DNA from: an uncultured archaeon
Lineage (GTDB): Archaea; Thermoplasmatota; Penumbrarchaeia; JASLWR01
Length of the DNA stretch: 64,000 bases
Direction: 5' to 3'
NCBI GenBank assembly: GCA_964342815.1
Contig: CAYFHS010000005.1
Coordinates: 64,001-128,000, forward strand
Both the position numbers and the translations under genes were made by a program. This document shows, one piece after another, positions 6,051 through 51,757 of the stretch. The stretch's first letter is position 1; each line of letters opens with the position of its first letter. Below the pieces are notes generated by a model, which worked only from the letters and a program-made list of their open reading frames with translations, was not told the origin of the DNA and searched no databases.

Positions 6051-7517
6051 GTGTTCTGCATCTACATTGCATTGGATGATACGGATTCCATGGAGGGCGG
6101 TTGTACAACGTATCTTCTCACCCGGGCCCTTGAGATTTGCCGTGATTCAGGTTATACCTGCCTTTTTTTGCCGGGGCTGGTCCGATTGAATCCGAACATT
6201 CCTTACAAAACCCGTGGCAATGGAGCAGTAGTATTTTACGTATCTCGCCGGATGGGCGATGACAATAATACCTTTTGCTCAGGTGCCATAGGCAATGAGC
6301 CGATGATGTCGATATGGTCGGATGACGAACACCGTGCGCCGGACCATGAGCCGCAAACAGAATTATTTCAGAAATTGAAACGACTTATAGATGAAGAATC
6401 ATCTTATGGGCATGAAAACACGAATCCGGGCCTGGTTGTCAGCAGCGATACTTTTGGATTATCCAATTATGAACGCGCAGTTCGAGCAGTATATCCGCTG
6501 GAAATGGTGCTGGGTATACTGGATCGAAAAATGAATACCTTGTACCATGGTCTGGGCTCTATGCGAGGTCTCGTGGGATGTTTAGGTGCTTTATCGTGGT
6601 ACCAGAACTACCGATCAAAGGGATTGGACCACACTTACGAAATGATATGCTACAGAAAACCTGAATTTTGGGGTACAAAAAGAGATGTCAAGCCAGATTT
6701 TGTAAGGTCCCTGGACCTGGAACTGCCCGGATCATTTAACAATTACGATCTGAAGAATGATAAACCGTTGATATATCCCAACACTCCCTGCCCGGTATTG
6801 TTTGGGGTCAGAGGCAATGATTATCACGTATTACCTCGTGCTTTGGAGATATTGGAGACCTTTGAGATGGAGCGGTGGCAGTTATTCGTCACCAATCAGG
6901 GGACTGATGATCATTTGGTACCGACCAGCCTTGGAAAGATTGAAAACTACGCTTCGGTCATCACTGAAGGGACCGTTCTCGAGAGTTCATTCACTATAAA
7001 GGGGGGTCATGTATTCATAAGGATAGGGGAGGGGGATAATAGCATATATGCCGCGGCCTTTGAGCCAACGAAGAGCTTTCGGAAAATAGTTCGAGGACTT
7101 TTGCCGGGTGATCGGGTGCGTGTGTTCGGAGGGGTGAAAGGTGACGAAAAGGCGGCTGATGATGGATGGGGGAAAATGAGACCGGCGTTGTTAGACGGGT
7201 TTGCGAGGGTGATCAATCTGGAGAAACTGGAGCTAATTGATAAAACCCATAGGCTGACAAAGATCTCCAATCCCATCTGTCCAAGCTGCAAAACAAAGAT
7301 GAAATCCCTGGGAAAGGGTGTGGGTTACAGGTGCAGAAAATGCCGCTTCAAGGCTGCTGAGAAGGATGCGGATTACGGTGAGCTTCCCCGCACCTTGGTG
7401 GAGGGTAAAACGTACGAGGTTGACGGAGTTGCCATGAGGCATTTGTCAAAACCGCTTGTTAGAATTGGCCGTGAAAAAGGGAGATCGCTTACGGAAATTG
7501 ATCAAATAAATTATTAA
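6051..7517 (+). CDS. tiaS: tRNA(Ile2) 2-agmatinylcytidine synthetase
   Basis: N-terminal DDTDS-x2-GGCTT; LVRLNPNIPYKTRGNGAV; P-x-P-C-P-VLFGVRG; TNQGTDDH; OB-fold AAFEPTK; zinc ribbon CPSC...CRKC. Confidence 0.95.
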   Translation: MFCIYIALDDTDSMEGGCTTYLLTRALEICRDSGYTCLFLPGLVRLNPNIPYKTRGNGAVVFYVSRRMGDDNNTFCSGAIGNEPMMSIWSDDEHRAPDHEPQTELFQKLKRLIDEESSYGHENTNPGLVVSSDTFGLSNYERAVRAVYPLEMVLGILDRKMNTLYHGLGSMRGLVGCLGALSWYQNYRSKGLDHTYEMICYRKPEFWGTKRDVKPDFVRSLDLELPGSFNNYDLKNDKPLIYPNTPCPVLFGVRGNDYHVLPRALEILETFEMERWQLFVTNQGTDDHLVPTSLGKIENYASVITEGTVLESSFTIKGGHVFIRIGEGDNSIYAAAFEPTKSFRKIVRGLLPGDRVRVFGGVKGDEKAADDGWGKMRPALLDGFARVINLEKLELIDKTHRLTKISNPICPSCKTKMKSLGKGVGYRCRKCRFKAAEKDADYGELPRTLVEGKTYEVDGVAMRHLSKPLVRIGREKGRSLTEIDQINY

Positions 7518-7525
7518 AAAAAAAG

Positions 7526-7631
7526 AGCCACCGGCGGGGATTGAACCCGCGATCTATGCCTTTTCGGGTTCGGCGCCGGGAGACCGGCACACGCTTACCA
7601 AGGCATCGCTATACCACTAAGCCACGGTGGC
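7526..7631 (-). tRNA. tRNA-Thr(GGT) with a 34-nt intron at position 37/38 (intron 7562-7595)
   Basis: Acceptor GCCACCG/CGGTGGC; anticodon stem ATGCC/GGCAT with loop TT-GGT-A|intron|A; T arm GCGGG-TTCAATC-CCCGC; exon TTGG pairs with intron CCGA to give the central BHB helix. Confidence 0.93.
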
Positions 7632-8756: not shown

Positions 8757-9235
8757 ATTCCATTTGTCCATGCCTGCTTTATGTCGTTTAGAGAATAACC
8801 CTTCGTATTGTATAGCTCGATCATATCATTTTCAGACCAGTAAGGGGATTCCCAGGGAGGGCGTCCGAGCCTTTTTCTGAATCTGGTAAGAATATCGTTC
8901 ACCACTGAAATGGAAGCCTGAGTTTCTTTGAAATCGGATGTTATTTCGATAAGTGACTGCCAGGTAGATGTGCCGATGGTTTCCGCTATGAGTTTGAAAG
9001 AAATATCCCCCAATTCAATGGATATGCTCCAGGGAAAATAATCCCTTTCCCACGTCAACCGTATATTTGGTTGGCTTCCCTTTCTCCGAACCGTCTTCAG
9101 GAAATTATCCCCCACATCGGTTAGCATCAGGCGGTCTTTGAAATTCCGAGGAGATAATATTTTACCCTTGCGAAGTCCCTTTTTCGAACAGCTGGGTCTA
9201 AGATGATTGGGGAACACAATATAGTGTTGGATCAT
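8741..9235 (-). CDS. Hypothetical protein
   Basis: 164-aa ORF with plausible composition and a GGGGTGA ribosome-binding-like site upstream; no recognised motif. Confidence 0.6.
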   Translation of the reverse strand: MIQHYIVFPNHLRPSCSKKGLRKGKILSPRNFKDRLMLTDVGDNFLKTVRRKGSQPNIRLTWERDYFPWSISIELGDISFKLIAETIGTSTWQSLIEITSDFKETQASISVVNDILTRFRKRLGRPPWESPYWSENDMIELYNTKGYSLNDIKQAWTNGIHFEV

Positions 9236-9352
9236 TCACACCCCTTTTGGATTATCGTAATATATCAGCTGGGATATTTCCAAGATAATAATAACTGATA
9301 CAGTGATCGATCTTGTAAATAATTTTTTCGGTGGATATAAAAGAATCGGAAA

Positions 9353-9756
9353 GTGCGAGTCCCCGCTTCGCTCTGGTCAATTAAAAATTGTCCTAACACG
9401 CATTTTTTCTACGAAAAAAAGTGCGAGGGCACGTTTCACTACGGTCAATCTGAGATTGCCCTGCCCTCTCCCTTTTCTCCCTTTGGTCGAAAAAGTGCGA
9501 GTCCCCACTACGTTCCGGTCAATTAAAATTGCCCTGACACGCATTTTTTCTCCGAAAAAAGTGCGAGTTTCCGCTTCGCTCTGGTCAATTGGAAATACTC
9601 GATGAATCGGAGATTCATCTGCACCCTCGGCTGGTAAGCCTACGGGTTGCCCTGACACGCATTTTTTTCTCCGAAAAAAAGTGCGAGTCCCCACTACGTT
9701 ACGGTCAATAAATAATTGCCCTGTCCCCGCCCTTTTTTTCCTTTTAGTCAAAAAAG
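9353..9756. repeat. Array of five imperfect direct repeats 3' of tRNA-Leu; plus-strand core A(n)GTGCGAG-N15-GGTCAAT-Nx-(A)TTG(C/T)CCT
   Basis: GTGCGAG starts at 9353, 9421, 9495, 9561 and 9681, then at 9756 (the tRNA 3' end). Spacings are 68, 74, 66, 120 and 75 bp. All five have exactly 15 nt between GCGAG and GGTCAA. Confidence 0.9.
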
Positions 9757-9840
9757 TGCGAGGGCCGAGATTCGAACTCGGGAACCACTAAGGACTAGAC
9801 CCTGAATCTAGCGCCGTTGACCTGGCTTGGCTACCCTCGC
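9757..9840 (-). tRNA. tRNA-Leu(CAG)
   Basis: Acceptor GCGAGGG/CCCTCGC plus discriminator A; D stem GCC/GGC; anticodon arm CTAGA-TTCAGGG-TCTAG; long variable arm; T arm CCGAG-TTCGAAT-CTCGG. Confidence 0.97.
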
Positions 9841-10286
9841 ACCTATGCATCCATTTATCGTGATTTCAATGATTTTCCTGTTCTATGCATCCAACTCATG
9901 GTCAACGGGGACCGGTTTGCAATACCCTTGTTGCCAACTAAGTTCAGCCCAAAGGGGTGAACGGAATTGACCTGGCTTGGCTACCCTCGCACCTATGCAT
10001 CCATTTATCGTGATTTCAATGATTTTCCTGTTCTATGCATCCAACTCATGGTCAACGGGGACCGGTTTGCAATACCCTTGTTGCCAACTAAGTTCAGCCC
10101 AAAGGGGTGAACGGAATTGACCTGGCTTGGCTACCCTTGCACCTATGCATCCGTTGATCGTGATGTTGTTGTTTCCGCTATATGCATCCGTTTCCTGGTC
10201 AACGGGTGCCGGTTGGCAACACACTTGTTGCCAACTAAGTTCAGCCAAAAGGGTGAACGAAATTGACCTGGCTTGGCTACCCTCGC
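9817..10286 (-). repeat. Tandem array of three 146-150 bp units, each bounded by the first 24 nt of tRNA-Leu
   Basis: TTGACCTGGCTTGGCTACCCT(C/T)GC starts at 9817 (within the tRNA), 9967, 10117 and 10263. Units 9817-9966 and 9967-10116 are identical; the third is diverged. Confidence 0.95.
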
Positions 10287-10295
10287 TATACAAAT

Positions 10296-10325
10296 CTTCT
10301 TATTATTGAATAATTATATGAATCA
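10296..10325 (-). promoter_or_regulatory. Putative archaeal TATA-type promoter for the tRNA-Leu array transcript
   Basis: Minus strand CATATAATTATTCAATAATAAG lies 15-35 nt upstream of the outermost GCGAGGG at 10286. Confidence 0.5.
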
Positions 10326-10387
10326 ATTCGAAAAATAATTTGTCAGGGTTCACCTAACTTTCTCTCCAACAATTTTGACTTGGTTGT

Positions 10388-10741
10388 TCAATCTTCCTTC
10401 TTGATCTCTTCCAGTATGTCCCATGTCTTGTCGTATATTCGATCATCCAGTTGAGTGAGTTCCAGTCGGACCCTAAGCCTGCCGTTGTCGAAAAATATGT
10501 ACGCTGACTTGACCTGCGACCTGAAGCATCTTACACTCTTACCCTTGTTGGATAGTTTAGTATCCACGCATTTGATAAGACCCATGGATACTAGTTTCTT
10601 TATTTTTTTGTAACATACTGCCACGGGGATGGCCAGTTGTTTACTGAGTTCCTGGGCTGTCTTGGGATATTTGAAGGATGCCGCCAGGATACGGAGGACC
10701 ACCTCGTCTGCAAAAAGTTTCGCTGTTTTTAAAGCTTCCAT
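10388..10741 (-). CDS. Winged helix-turn-helix protein (ArsR/HTH_20-like)
   Basis: RILAASFKYPKTAQELSKQLAIPVAVCYKKIKKLVSMGLI helix-turn-helix followed by a beta wing. Confidence 0.85.
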   Translation of the reverse strand: MEALKTAKLFADEVVLRILAASFKYPKTAQELSKQLAIPVAVCYKKIKKLVSMGLIKCVDTKLSNKGKSVRCFRSQVKSAYIFFDNGRLRVRLELTQLDDRIYDKTWDILEEIKKED

Positions 10742-11033
10742 CCGGATACACCTCTTTCAGGTCCGACCGATGATATTTTTGTCGTCATTGCCGCTTATGA
10801 CAAAATGAACACAATTCATCAAATCCAATAAATATCAGTGATACCAGCGTGTATCAATATTATTTCGTACTTCGCCATCGGTCCCCACGGGATATTTTGC
10901 CACAGTAATATAAAATACATATAAATAGATTTCGCCGGTCACCAAATGACCGACTGGTCCGTTCAAAATAGGGTCGGACAAACTCCAAAAATAGGAGTGT
11001 AAAAGACTAATATTGTTTCATTTTATAATATTG

Positions 11034-13503: not shown

Positions 13504-15543
13504 ATGCAGGAACTGTTTCCATATATTCCCAGAAAGACTCAGAAGAAAATCGTCGAAGATATCTACTCTTCAGCACTGGAACAGCGAAACTTAATAATTC
13601 AATCAAAGACCGGTTCGGGAAAGACAGTCTGTTCTTTATCGGCGCTTTTACACTTCTGCATTGATGAAAAAAAGAGATTGGTCTATACCACGAGAACCAA
13701 TTCTCAGCAGAAACAGGTGATCAGAGAGGCAAGAGCCATCAGGGAGAATGCGCCAGATGGGACCTTTGCACCTGAAGAGCTATTGGCCCTGCCGCTTCAG
13801 GGCCGGAGGAACATGTGCCTTCTGATGGATAAACTTTCGGAGTTCAGAGAGGCAATGCCCGAAGAAATGTCTCTGATGTGCAGTACCAGGAAAAAGCGGA
13901 CAGGTGAAATACTCGAAGGTACGGATAAGGAAGTTTCGGTGGACTTTAACCGCGCCGTATTCGATATGATGCTCCATGACCGCATGTGTCCTTACTACTA
14001 TCGTCTGCTCACGACTAAGCAAAACTCGTTAAAACAATGGGTTGCAGAGCGGATACCCGATGCGCAGGAGATTGTATCGAGGTGCCGTGATGAGGAAATA
14101 TGCCCTTACGAGTTCATTAAGATTTTGCTGGAACGAGCGCTGCTGGTTGTGATGCCCTATATCTTTGTATTCAACGACGCAATACGCGGGCATTTGCTGG
14201 ACTGGTTGAACGAGGGAACCGAAGAGTTTGTCCTCGTTGTAGATGAAGCCCACAACCTGCCGGATTTCCTGCGCGACCTGTATTCATTCACCCTTTCTCG
14301 AAGCACCATAGGGACTGCAAAGAAGGAGGCGGAGCGGTACGGGATCGATTTTTTCTATGACGATATACCGCTAAAGCGTTTTCTTGACCTTCTTGAGAGC
14401 ACAATGGTGGAGCTTGCAGAAGAATACATTGATGACGGAAATACGGGTGATACAGTTCGGGATAATAGGTCCGTAATTATCTCTGTGGAGGAGGACGCCG
14501 TGATACCTCAGGACGCTCTTATGACCGGCCTTATGTCGGGGCTCGTGATCACTTCCACGACCCTCATGAAGGGAATACAAAAATTGGCATACGAGGGTTA
14601 TGTTATCAAGGAAAAGAAAAAGACTGACGGGAAGCTGCCCCGGTCATATCTTCTTATTATAGCAACATTTCTGCAGCAATGGGAGGACCTTACGGAGGAA
14701 TACTACATCAAGCTTATTTACGACCGGGAAAATCCGCATCTGGAAGCATACTGTCTCGATCCGCAGAAGGGGGGGGTGATTTGCCAGACATTTTATTCGT
14801 CAGTTCACATGTCAGGCACTCTCGAGCCCCTGCACGAGTACCGGGACTGTATTTCCCTTGAGAACTCCGAGCTTCGCAGCTATCCCTCACCTTTCGATCC
14901 GGATAATCTCCTGAGCCTTTTCACGCCAAACCTAACCACGAGATATGCGCAGTTTCACGAAAATGAGAATATGCAGGAAGCTTACGAAAGGTCAATCTGC
15001 AATATCCTCCGGGAGCACAAACGAAATACTATTATCTTTTTCCCGTCATACCGGATAATGAAGCTCATCAGCTCAAGCGATATGATGAAAAATATAACAC
15101 ATGACCGTCCCATTTTCCATGAGAGAACGAAGGACTCGCAGGAGGAACTGTTGGACGAGATCGGTTCGTTCAGGAGGTCTTCGGGAGGAATATATTTCTC
15201 GGTCATCGGCGGACGGGTCTCCGAAGGGATGGACTTTCCGGGGAATACGCTCGAGATGGCGCTCCTGGTGGGGATCCCTTACCCGAAACCAACAGCAAGA
15301 CAGAAGGGCCTGAGAAGATATTACGATATAAAGACAGGGAATGGCTGGTTATTCGCGGTGTTGGCCCCAACCGTGCGAAAGATACTACAGGCCATGGGAA
15401 GGGTGATCCGCTCGGAGGAGGACCGGGGAGTGGCCGTTATCATGGACGTGCGGGCTAAGCGTTTTCAGGAGTATATCGAGGGATTGGAAGAGGAAGAAGA
15501 TGTGGCGGGGAGGGTGAGGAATTTTTTTATGACCTTGGAATAA
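13504..15543 (+). CDS. XPD/Rad3/DinG-family Fe-S DNA helicase
   Basis: Q motif, TGSGKT, four Fe-S cysteines, VVDEAHN, HMSGTL, SEGMDF, QAMGRVIR. Confidence 0.95.
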   Translation: MQELFPYIPRKTQKKIVEDIYSSALEQRNLIIQSKTGSGKTVCSLSALLHFCIDEKKRLVYTTRTNSQQKQVIREARAIRENAPDGTFAPEELLALPLQGRRNMCLLMDKLSEFREAMPEEMSLMCSTRKKRTGEILEGTDKEVSVDFNRAVFDMMLHDRMCPYYYRLLTTKQNSLKQWVAERIPDAQEIVSRCRDEEICPYEFIKILLERALLVVMPYIFVFNDAIRGHLLDWLNEGTEEFVLVVDEAHNLPDFLRDLYSFTLSRSTIGTAKKEAERYGIDFFYDDIPLKRFLDLLESTMVELAEEYIDDGNTGDTVRDNRSVIISVEEDAVIPQDALMTGLMSGLVITSTTLMKGIQKLAYEGYVIKEKKKTDGKLPRSYLLIIATFLQQWEDLTEEYYIKLIYDRENPHLEAYCLDPQKGGVICQTFYSSVHMSGTLEPLHEYRDCISLENSELRSYPSPFDPDNLLSLFTPNLTTRYAQFHENENMQEAYERSICNILREHKRNTIIFFPSYRIMKLISSSDMMKNITHDRPIFHERTKDSQEELLDEIGSFRRSSGGIYFSVIGGRVSEGMDFPGNTLEMALLVGIPYPKPTARQKGLRRYYDIKTGNGWLFAVLAPTVRKILQAMGRVIRSEEDRGVAVIMDVRAKRFQEYIEGLEEEEDVAGRVRNFFMTLE

Positions 15544-50466: not shown

Positions 50467-50749
50467 TGCCCTTGCGGTTATTTGTCATAACCTTAAAACG
50501 ATTATTAAAGATTGTCGTTATTATTATATCATAGCGTCACAGGTATGAAAACGATTCCCATAAAAAGCTCCGTTTGAAAGATTCCCGGAAATGAACGGAG
50601 ATTAATTATAATTGCAGACGGTTATTATATTGTCAATGGTGAAAGGCTCGACAAAAAGTCGAGGTTTGCAGCTTGGCAATGTTCGCGGAATCGCGGATCG
50701 AAGGGCCGATTCCGCTGAATCCTTCCTAAACCTTTATCAGGTGAATGAT

Positions 50750-51757
50750 ATGGGAATTGTCTTTGACGAATCATACATCGAGCATCGGCAAAATTATATG
50801 CACCCCGAGCGGCCTGAACGCCTGGAAGCGATAATTGAAAAGATGAGTGCCCAATCGCTTTGGAAAAATATCGTAAAACCGGATCCCGCTGCCGTAGAGG
50901 ACGTCACACTCAACCATTCGGAAAGATATGTACGACGGATCCGGGATTCTCCTGAAGGGTACATCGATCCGGATACCTATCTACGGAAAAAGACATATGA
51001 CATAGCCATGAAAGCTGTGGGAGGGGCAATAAAGGCTGCAGAAATGGCATATGATAAGAAAGAGACCGCCTTGGCTTTACTGAGACCTCCCGGGCATCAT
51101 GCGGTTGAGAGCTCGTCCATGGGCTTTTGTTATTTCAACAACATAGCCATTGCAGCAAAGAAGATTGCGGACAAGGCACCACGTATAGTAATTATTGATC
51201 CCGACGTCCATCACGGGAACGGCACCCAGGATTCTTTCTATAACAGCAGCGACGTTCTGTACATCTCAACACACCAGAGATATATCTTCCCGGGAACCGG
51301 CCGTATCTCGGAGGTGGGAAGCGGAAAGGGGAAGGGATTTACAGTTAACATCCCCTTTGATGATGGTTGCGGTGATTCCAGCTACGAAATGGCACTGACG
51401 AAAGTTATTCTGCCAGTAATCGAGCAATTCAAACCTGATATGATAATGGTGTCGTTGGGGACCGATGCTCATTACGAAGATTTGTTAGCCGGATTGAATC
51501 TTTCCAGCAGGGGATACGTGGACATGATGAAAAGGTTGCATGGATTGGCGAACAAAATATGTAACGGGCGTTTTGCTGTCTTCCTCGAAGGTGGCTATGC
51601 TCTTTCGCCCTTGAGCGAGATCGTAACAGGTTTTTACGGCTCCACACGGGGAAGACATATCTCTCTTAAGCATACCGACATATCGGATAAAACAGGTTTG
51701 GGATCTGCTACGATCCAGTCCGTATTGGATACACAGAGAAAATATTGGGACCTGTAG
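50750..51757 (+). CDS. Histone deacetylase family (Zn-dependent amidohydrolase) protein
   Basis: HPERPERL, RPPGHHA, GFCYFNN, DVHHGNGT, EGGY. Start moved from 50612 to the ATG at 50750 after a GGTGA ribosome-binding site. Confidence 0.95.
   Translation: MGIVFDESYIEHRQNYMHPERPERLEAIIEKMSAQSLWKNIVKPDPAAVEDVTLNHSERYVRRIRDSPEGYIDPDTYLRKKTYDIAMKAVGGAIKAAEMAYDKKETALALLRPPGHHAVESSSMGFCYFNNIAIAAKKIADKAPRIVIIDPDVHHGNGTQDSFYNSSDVLYISTHQRYIFPGTGRISEVGSGKGKGFTVNIPFDDGCGDSSYEMALTKVILPVIEQFKPDMIMVSLGTDAHYEDLLAGLNLSSRGYVDMMKRLHGLANKICNGRFAVFLEGGYALSPLSEIVTGFYGSTRGRHISLKHTDISDKTGLGSATIQSVLDTQRKYWDL

Follow-up and report, generated by a model that had tools for sequence, protein, structure and literature searches.

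The closest described system is that of the tRNA-linked repeats (TLRs) of E. coli, of which 22 units are known, spread over ten loci that include rrA, rrB and rrF (Stenum et al. 2021, PMC8144298). TLRs lie in one to five tandem units per locus within tRNA or rRNA transcription units and contain no open reading frame, and most of them have no known function (PMC8144298). The units described here resemble the TLRs in being arranged in tandem within what is probably a tRNA transcription unit and in carrying, each of them, a copy of one end of the neighbouring stable RNA gene. TLRs are however found downstream of that gene and copy its last 18–19 nt, whereas the present units are found upstream and copy the first 24 nt; the copied stretch here is one strand of a covarying three-way junction; and the present family is archaeal, confined to class II tRNAs and without sequence relation to TLRs. 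It can be regarded as a 5'-side archaeal counterpart of the E. coli TLRs. Full-text searches of the literature gave no description of such a tRNA leader, and we class the element as a hitherto undescribed one of the 5' leader that is tied to class II tRNAs, with the TLRs as the nearest system in print.

In the window, i.e. the whole stretch of 64,000 nucleotides from an uncultured member of the Thermoplasmatota that was analyzed, three tandem units of 146, 150 and 150 nt occupy positions 9841–10286 of the minus strand, upstream of tRNA-Leu(CAG) (9756–9840, minus). Tandem Repeats Finder reports a single array at 9817–10286 with a period of 150, 3.2 copies, 92% matches and a score of 772. The tRNA gene, identified with ARAGORN and from the sequence, ends the array as an intact working gene, and a complete cloverleaf is predicted for it when it is folded together with the leader. 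Every unit opens with nucleotides 1–24 of this tRNA, and the 24-nt repeat is present four times, at 10263–10286, 10117–10140, 9967–9990 and as the beginning of the tRNA itself. The copy at 10117–10140 carries one substitution, G to A at nucleotide 3 of the unit (10138), which is also the only difference between units 1 and 2, while the distal unit 3 is 82–85% identical to both. Without the 24-mer, the inserts measure 122–126 nt and contain no cargo.

In detail, unit 1 (proximal, 150 nt, 9841–9990) consists of the 24-mer (9967–9990) with the 5' strand of helix P1 (9967–9972), the hairpin P2 (9942–9962), the hairpin P3 with two mismatches (9915–9938), the joiner CGGTCCCCG (9906–9914), the 3' strand of P1, TTGACC (9900–9905), and a tail with two GGATGCATA repeats (9841–9899). 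Unit 2 (150 nt, 9991–10140) has its 24-mer at 10117–10140, P2 at 10092–10112, P3 at 10065–10088, the joiner at 10056–10064 and the 3' strand of P1 at 10050–10055. Unit 3 (distal, 146 nt, 10141–10286) has its 24-mer at 10263–10286, P2 at 10239–10258, a perfect P3 of 9 bp at 10212–10235, the joiner CGGCACCCG at 10203–10211 and a 3' strand of P1 at 10197–10202 that is lengthened by AGG (10194–10196). All parts lie on the minus strand, and a covariance model matches the units at 9892–9981 (85.5 bits), 10042–10131 (85.5 bits) and 10189–10277 (90.1 bits). Unit 3 is nearest to units of a sister species (G001), to one of which its interior is 96% identical. A preliminary description of this DNA had claimed the three units of 146–150 bp that each repeat the first 24 nt of tRNA-Leu, the positions of the 24-mers with their single substitution, the pairing of GGTCAA with TTGACC, the two hairpins and the two direct repeats of the tail, and all of these were found again in their places.

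Upstream of unit 3 the sequence turns AT-rich and contains the TATA-like box CATATAATTATT (10309–10320, minus), which, read from the sequence, covers –34 to –23 counted from the base with which the distal 24-mer begins and is likely to be the promoter of the whole leader and the tRNA. A well-placed box is thus found only ahead of the outermost copy, as had been stated, and the sister species shows a TATA-like box placed likewise ahead of its distal copy. In most relatives the stretch directly 5' of the tRNA is GC-rich and devoid of a TATA element. The proximal tails of the window contain GATAAATG at –19 to –12, which might conceivably act as a weak internal promoter.

The identical inner units are supported by reads. 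The contig over one inner unit (9817–9987) has, in the best-covering run, which is likely to be the source run, a depth of 28.5 compared with 10.6–12.6 in the flanks (2.3–2.7x), which fits at least two copies and disfavours a single one, the case that the preliminary description had proposed to check by read depth. In addition, the junction between units is bridged by contigs of two other studies (X5, 9924–10103; X9, 9875–10039), the latter being a single contig from a metatranscriptome library, which may contain DNA. Among the Logan contigs no joint at unit borders was found that would indicate circular or excised forms, a result that says nothing on rare forms. Contigs terminate inside such arrays in several genomes. 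The arrays break assemblies at tRNA genes, and they are open to being mis-read as disrupted or intron-bearing tRNA genes.

An interruption of the gene in the D-loop had indeed been proposed for this locus. Taken as a rival explanation, this would mean an intron or a split or permuted gene, with splicing of the distal 5' fragment onto the 3' part. Introns are known from D-loop positions in some archaea, and as in the non-canonical introns and split tRNAs of Thermoproteales and Nanoarchaeum the break is placed at the border of D-loop and D-stem and exon-like sequence pairs with the insert. Minimum-free-energy folds of unit and tRNA can, moreover, pair the distal acceptor strand with the 3' terminus of the tRNA, with the antisense strand clamping the proximal D-region. 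However, an intact tRNA copy ends every array, and in single-unit loci the acceptor strand of the distal 5' fragment has decayed, so that this fragment cannot serve as an exon. A search of seven leader-plus-tRNA loci for the archaeal bulge-helix-bulge (BHB) motif, defined as 3-nt bulge, 4-bp helix and 3-nt bulge, revealed none at the unit borders and none common to the genera; the sole recurrent match, found in the window and in the sister species of the same genus, consists mostly of G·U pairs, and splicing there would leave a tRNA without D-stem. A split tRNA system was likewise rejected: in this genome (89% complete) there are whole genes for all isoacceptors, five for Leu and four for Ser, and nothing needs joining. 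In contrast to the archaeal introns and split tRNAs, the arrays described here have an intact gene copy and no conserved BHB, and their distal fragment has decayed or can be dispensed with. We consider a disrupted tRNA gene hardly credible. The units do not derive from the tRNA body either, as local alignment of their interiors with the tRNA from nucleotide 25 to its end gave z = –1.2 to +1.2 compared with shuffled sequences.

The element is modeled as a three-way junction in which P1 encloses P2, P3 and a conserved joiner of 9 nt with the consensus CGGUCCCCG. P1 is formed by the copy of the D-loop region of the tRNA, i.e. the 3' part of the 24-mer, and an antisense strand about 61 nt downstream, which in the model from 13 aligned unit cores consists of TTGACC and up to six further nucleotides. 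In the alignment of these cores 90% of the cells are paired and 13 pairs have changed on both sides. Among 40 distinct units collected with the covariance model R1, 90.1% of the cells are paired, in an alignment fitted to that model, which favours pairing somewhat, and both sides have changed in 23 of the 28 pairs; the covariation score was reached by none of 500 shuffles, and when the 3' partner was slid by 1–3 columns only 25–49% of the cells were paired. Of the three helices P1 tells the most, since its 3' strand tracks the local tRNA D-loop, including the D-loops of tRNA-Ser, which are unlike those of tRNA-Leu. Thus CCAGG is matched by CCTGG, CCTGG by CCAGG and GCTTGG by CCAAGC, and the corresponding pairs are CCTGGTAC/GTACCAGG at Ser-GCT and CTGGCCCA/TGGGCCAG at Ser-TGA. 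Selection on the fold is strongly supported by this covariation among the aligned relatives.

The comparison of units within the window, which had originally suggested selection on structure, does not bear it out: the suggestion stands, and its basis has moved to the relatives. One correction to the preliminary description is needed, in that the diverged distal unit 3 is the best-formed of the three, with a perfect P3 and z = –1.7 to –2.5. The identical units 1 and 2 carry two P3 mismatches and a shortened P1 and have z = +1.0 to +1.2, no better than shuffled sequences, so that fold energies in the window give no support for structure in these two proximal units and both may be decaying.

Beyond the junction, the joiner is complementary to the GGGGACC loop of a tail hairpin in a species of the same family (G003) and in many units of another family (f7). 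The per-locus shuffle test of this pairing is weak (fraction 0.03–0.3), and support for the pairing comes from two variants that compensate each other's changes, GGUACCC/GGGUACC as well as GGUUCCC/GGGAACC. The GGGGACC partner is absent from the tails of the window itself. A cmscan of positions 9000–11000 against Rfam at E up to 10 gave three chance-level matches only, to models of eukaryotic lncRNAs and miRNAs, and known RNA families, including hammerhead, twister, pistol, hatchet, HDV-like, T-box and C/D sRNA, were ruled out in the absence of any true Rfam match.

When the 126 nt that do not come from the tRNA were used as a BLAST query, the element was recovered upstream of tRNA-Leu genes in three further genomes, with two units in the sister species (G001), two units of 140 nt in G003 and one unit, at Leu-GAG, in a genome of another family (G009). 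In a scan of 185,579 species genomes the exact pattern with a fixed spacing of 52 nt occurred in Thermoplasmatota MAGs only, apart from a few chance matches in bacteria; a neighbouring tRNA was present in the fetched stretch of seven of eight such loci, and in all seven the pattern was located upstream of a tRNA-Leu on the same strand. In every genome compared the 24-mer copies are identical to the 5' end of the cognate tRNA, although the tRNAs themselves differ. The R1 model matches 22 of 37 genomes of the class, namely all four of family f1, to which the genome of the window belongs, and 18 of 24 in family f7, whereas the seven other families gave no match. Outside the class, in a sample of 151 genomes of the phylum, there was one convincing match, at Ser-TGA in a genome of another class (G137). 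All full-length matches near an assembled tRNA lie directly upstream of it, on the tRNA strand, at Leu-CAG, Leu-GAG, Leu-TAA, Ser-GCT, Ser-TGA or Ser-CGA, and no tRNA type other than class II occurred among the full-length hits with an assembled neighbour. Judged from these matches the element is specific to the class II tRNAs (Leu, Ser) in a group of marine Thermoplasmatota, and it is old and for the most part vertically inherited.

Within a genome the distribution is patchy. In the genome of the window the element is found at two of nine Leu/Ser tRNA genes, and the other seven have ordinary promoters and no unit, so that class II tRNAs can function without the element. The second array of this genome (contig C12, 12258–12680; locus L030, 1380–1921) consists of two units of 184 nt upstream of an intron-containing tRNA-Leu(TAA). 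In these units a 55-nt AT-rich insert splits nucleotides 1–8 of the tRNA from nucleotides 9–24; as the insert is TATA-like, each of the two units may have its own promoter.

As the inserted DNA lies here between direct repeats of part of a tRNA, and tRNA genes are the usual integration targets in archaea, the units might be leftover att sites of integrated viruses or plasmids that have been tandemly duplicated and have no present function. The att duplications left by tyrosine recombinases in archaea and bacteria resemble the present case in the partial direct repeat around the insert and in the regeneration of an intact tRNA gene. In contrast to these, the part duplicated here is the 5' and not the 3' end, and the insert is short (about 125 nt), structured, without cargo and conserved at orthologous loci across families, where it shows covariation and is found at six different tRNA genes. 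No integrase is located nearby: the neighbours are genes for TiaS, an ABC transporter, an HTH protein and XPD, among which neither an integrase nor a transposase was found. A virus-borne copy was also sought, and the exact-pattern scan of viral contigs gave one match only, a chance one in coding-like DNA. Attachment-site remnants are accordingly a very unlikely explanation.

More can be said about how units are gained and lost. The tRNA-Leu(GAG) locus is orthologous in the genome of the window and in the sister species, which share the gene upstream of it as well as the flank. In the former the tRNA is uninterrupted and the site is empty, while in the sister species the native flank and the 24-mer are followed by the interior of a unit, the break lying exactly after nucleotide 24. 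This pair of filled and empty sites agrees with the earlier claim that the insert comes with a regenerated 5' part of 24 nt. The body of the Leu-GAG tRNA of the sister species, which was sought for a reading of the proximal 24-mer of that array, is absent from the assembly. The Leu-GAG unit of this species is 98% identical to its Leu-CAG unit, and in G009, G018 and G030 there are cases in which the nearest relative of a unit is one at another tRNA gene of the same genome (73–78%); at other loci it is the orthologue, which is 90–96% identical. Tandem amplification has taken place at independent loci, in the window, on C12, in G001, G003, G017 and G020 and at three loci of G030. Distal copies decay, the acceptor part having gone in L037 and L034, and L053 is reduced to P1, joiner and tail. 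In addition, L084 (G030, contig C468, 307–393, minus) is a chimera of a tRNA-Ser(GCT)-type 5' fragment, P2, P3 and joiner followed directly by the 3' acceptor strand of a tRNA-Ser and CCA; it lacks the antisense strand, the tail, the 3' strand of the D-stem, the anticodon arm and the T-arm, and it has the appearance of a deletion with its ends in the joiner (GGTTC) and the T-arm. By sequence, the pattern of gain, loss and copying is consistent with recombination, both between the direct repeats of 24 nt and among paralogous tRNA genes.

Such a pattern could also be produced by a selfish mobile element that carries no genes and has specialised in class II tRNA genes. Its internal antisense strand, or the homology of the 24-mer, would direct its entry after the D-loop, and it would regenerate the 5' part so that the tRNA survives, its fold serving its own propagation and not the host. 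The patchy occurrence among class II tRNA genes and genomes would be accounted for in this way, as would the exact break after nucleotide 24 at the filled site, the near identity of units found at separate tRNA genes within a genome, the recurrent amplification, the decayed and chimeric derivatives (L053, L084) and the presence of the P2–P3 module in the apex of an unrelated repeat family as well. A mobility enzyme is, however, neither encoded nor linked, the many clean orthologues with 90–96% identity indicate that movement is rare, ordinary recombination between 24-nt repeats explains gain, loss and copying without a dedicated mechanism, and the fold is under selection, which a pure DNA parasite would not obviously need. 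We regard the selfish element as possible and rather less than probable. As a specific form of this idea, we tentatively suggest that the units represent a new type of mobile element, structured and without genes, which would home in on class II tRNA genes by means of an internal guide strand pairing with the D-loop, a proposal we hold to be somewhat doubtful. The element would enter right behind the D-loop and carry or regenerate the 5' part of the tRNA, the living gene would then be transcribed through the element, and the fold of P2, P3, joiner and tail pseudoknot would be the target recognized by a factor of the host or of the element. The family could thereby reveal a minimal mobile element living on tRNA genes by host recombination and base pairing alone.

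The explanation we favour, with about an even chance of being right, is that the units constitute a structured leader module, transcribed along with class II tRNAs on their 5' side, and that recombination between the repeats of 24 nt multiplies and moves this module. For it speak the anatomy, the conservation in relatives, the covariation, the specificity for class II tRNAs and the filled and empty sites, which the sequences show, together with the absence of integrase and transposase genes from the neighbourhood. Against it count the numbers of G·U pairs and A·C mismatches given below, the damaged fold of the two proximal units, the patchy occurrence, an RNA evidence consisting of a single contig and the possible weak promoter within the proximal tails. 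The units would be transcribed together with the tRNA from the promoter ahead of the distal copy, and the leader would fold co-transcriptionally into the three-way junction, by which the antisense strand is held off the tRNA. Cleavage by RNase P at the 5' end of the tRNA would then remove the units and free the tRNA, and the folded leader might either modulate this step or persist as a small RNA. Since each element carries the 5' part of the tRNA, the locus holds 24-nt direct repeats, and unequal or ectopic homologous recombination between them could add units, as in the three of the window, delete them precisely, as at the empty Leu-GAG site of the same genome, and copy them between class II tRNA genes.

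Our best guess for the role of the leader is a cis-acting one in the folding or maturation of the pre-tRNA, in which the antisense strand clamps either the decoy, i.e. the upstream copy, or the real D-arm; a stable small RNA derived from the leader is the alternative. When unit and tRNA are folded together, the antisense strand pairs equally well with the decoy and with the real D-region. Cases in which decoy and tRNA differ are mixed, as the antisense strand fits the decoy better in L064 and the tRNA slightly better in L047, suggesting that the conserved requirement is at least a P1 formed with the decoy. An antisense strand with two identical partners recalls the antiterminator and anti-antiterminator of bacterial attenuators and T-boxes, but the present units are located upstream of a tRNA and not of an mRNA, and neither a terminator nor a ligand nor a tRNA-binding platform has been identified, so that the resemblance is one of logic only.

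Whether RNA or DNA is the selected molecule bears on all of these readings. For an RNA on the tRNA strand speak the co-orientation of element and tRNA, the position between promoter and tRNA, the GC-rich tails without TATA in most relatives, the contig from an RNA library and the scarcity of oligo-T. Runs of oligo-T are the archaeal terminator signal, and in 29 leaders, read on the tRNA strand, there are two runs of T5 or longer compared with 15 of A5 or longer. The paired columns, on the other hand, contain 22 G·U pairs and 26 A·C mismatches, and in this test nothing pointed to the tRNA-sense RNA as the strand under selection; in addition, one C·A mismatch in P3 recurs across several loci. 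For these reasons we keep as a rival the reading that the structure is selected in DNA, as REP-like hairpins or cruciforms of single-stranded or supercoiled DNA that would be read by a recombinase, a nuclease or a replication factor. The equal counts of G·U and A·C are as expected if both strands or the DNA matter, P2 and P3 are near-perfect palindromes and other modular hairpin repeats abound in the genome. A structure in DNA would, however, account neither for the strict co-orientation with the tRNA inside a likely transcript nor for an avoidance of oligo-T that is restricted to the sense strand, the conserved, asymmetric joiner has a long-range complementarity to the tail that includes sense-strand G·U pairs, and no RAYT- or TnpA-like gene is linked. 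We therefore judge selection in DNA to be improbable.

If the co-transcribed leader is the correct reading, a structured element with three helices and 23 covarying pairs is physically built from a part of the tRNA that follows it, and it is confined to the two tRNA classes with a long variable arm. It could reveal leader-based control or chaperoning in the maturation of class II pre-tRNAs, or a small RNA derived from the leader. A clear structural model and a natural pair of filled and empty sites make the proposal directly testable.

Other repeats were observed in this genome. An abundant modular hairpin repeat with about 28 copies, e.g. at 50627–50704 of the window (plus) and at 14871–14975 of contig C17, extends from ATTGTCAATGGTG as far as AGCTTGACAATG, with a hairpin of CGCGGAATC...GATTCCGC after it. 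The majority of the copies are located 60–350 nt upstream of an open reading frame on the same strand, that of the window just before the one starting at 50750, and the repeat has no match in Rfam. Some copies contain large apical inserts, including the P2–P3 module (family f1), with the same loops and compensated stems.

On the minus strand at 7526–7631 of the window there is an intron-containing tRNA that was missed by ARAGORN under default settings and scores 57.3 bits with the Rfam tRNA model. With introns allowed, ARAGORN calls it Phe(GAA) with an intron of 34 nt, which may be a mis-call; since it is located directly downstream of the gene for TiaS, the tRNA-Ile2 agmatidine synthetase (6051–7517), it could be tRNA-Ile(CAU).

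Downstream of tRNA-Leu(CAG), at 9350–9755 (minus), the window contains at least five repeat units made up of TTGACC, 15 nt, CTCGCAC and a T-run, which copy the last 7 nt of this tRNA together with the terminator; hairpins of T-run and A-run lie between the units. A processing stem between leader and trailer was considered and rejected, as this downstream array and the upstream units have only complementary words of 6–9 nt (GTGCGAG, GGTCAATT, GTCCCC) in common, which form no continuous stem. Similar trailer modules follow tRNA-Leu(GAG) on contig C59 and tRNA-Leu(TAG) on contig C27, the latter copying CCCGCAC in accordance with the end of that tRNA. In family f7, trailers of tRNA-Leu (e.g. L033, 1369–1330, and L039) contain a stretch complementary to the 3' end of their own tRNA, GCACCAUUUC pairing with GAAAUGGUGC in a hairpin that includes the encoded CCA.
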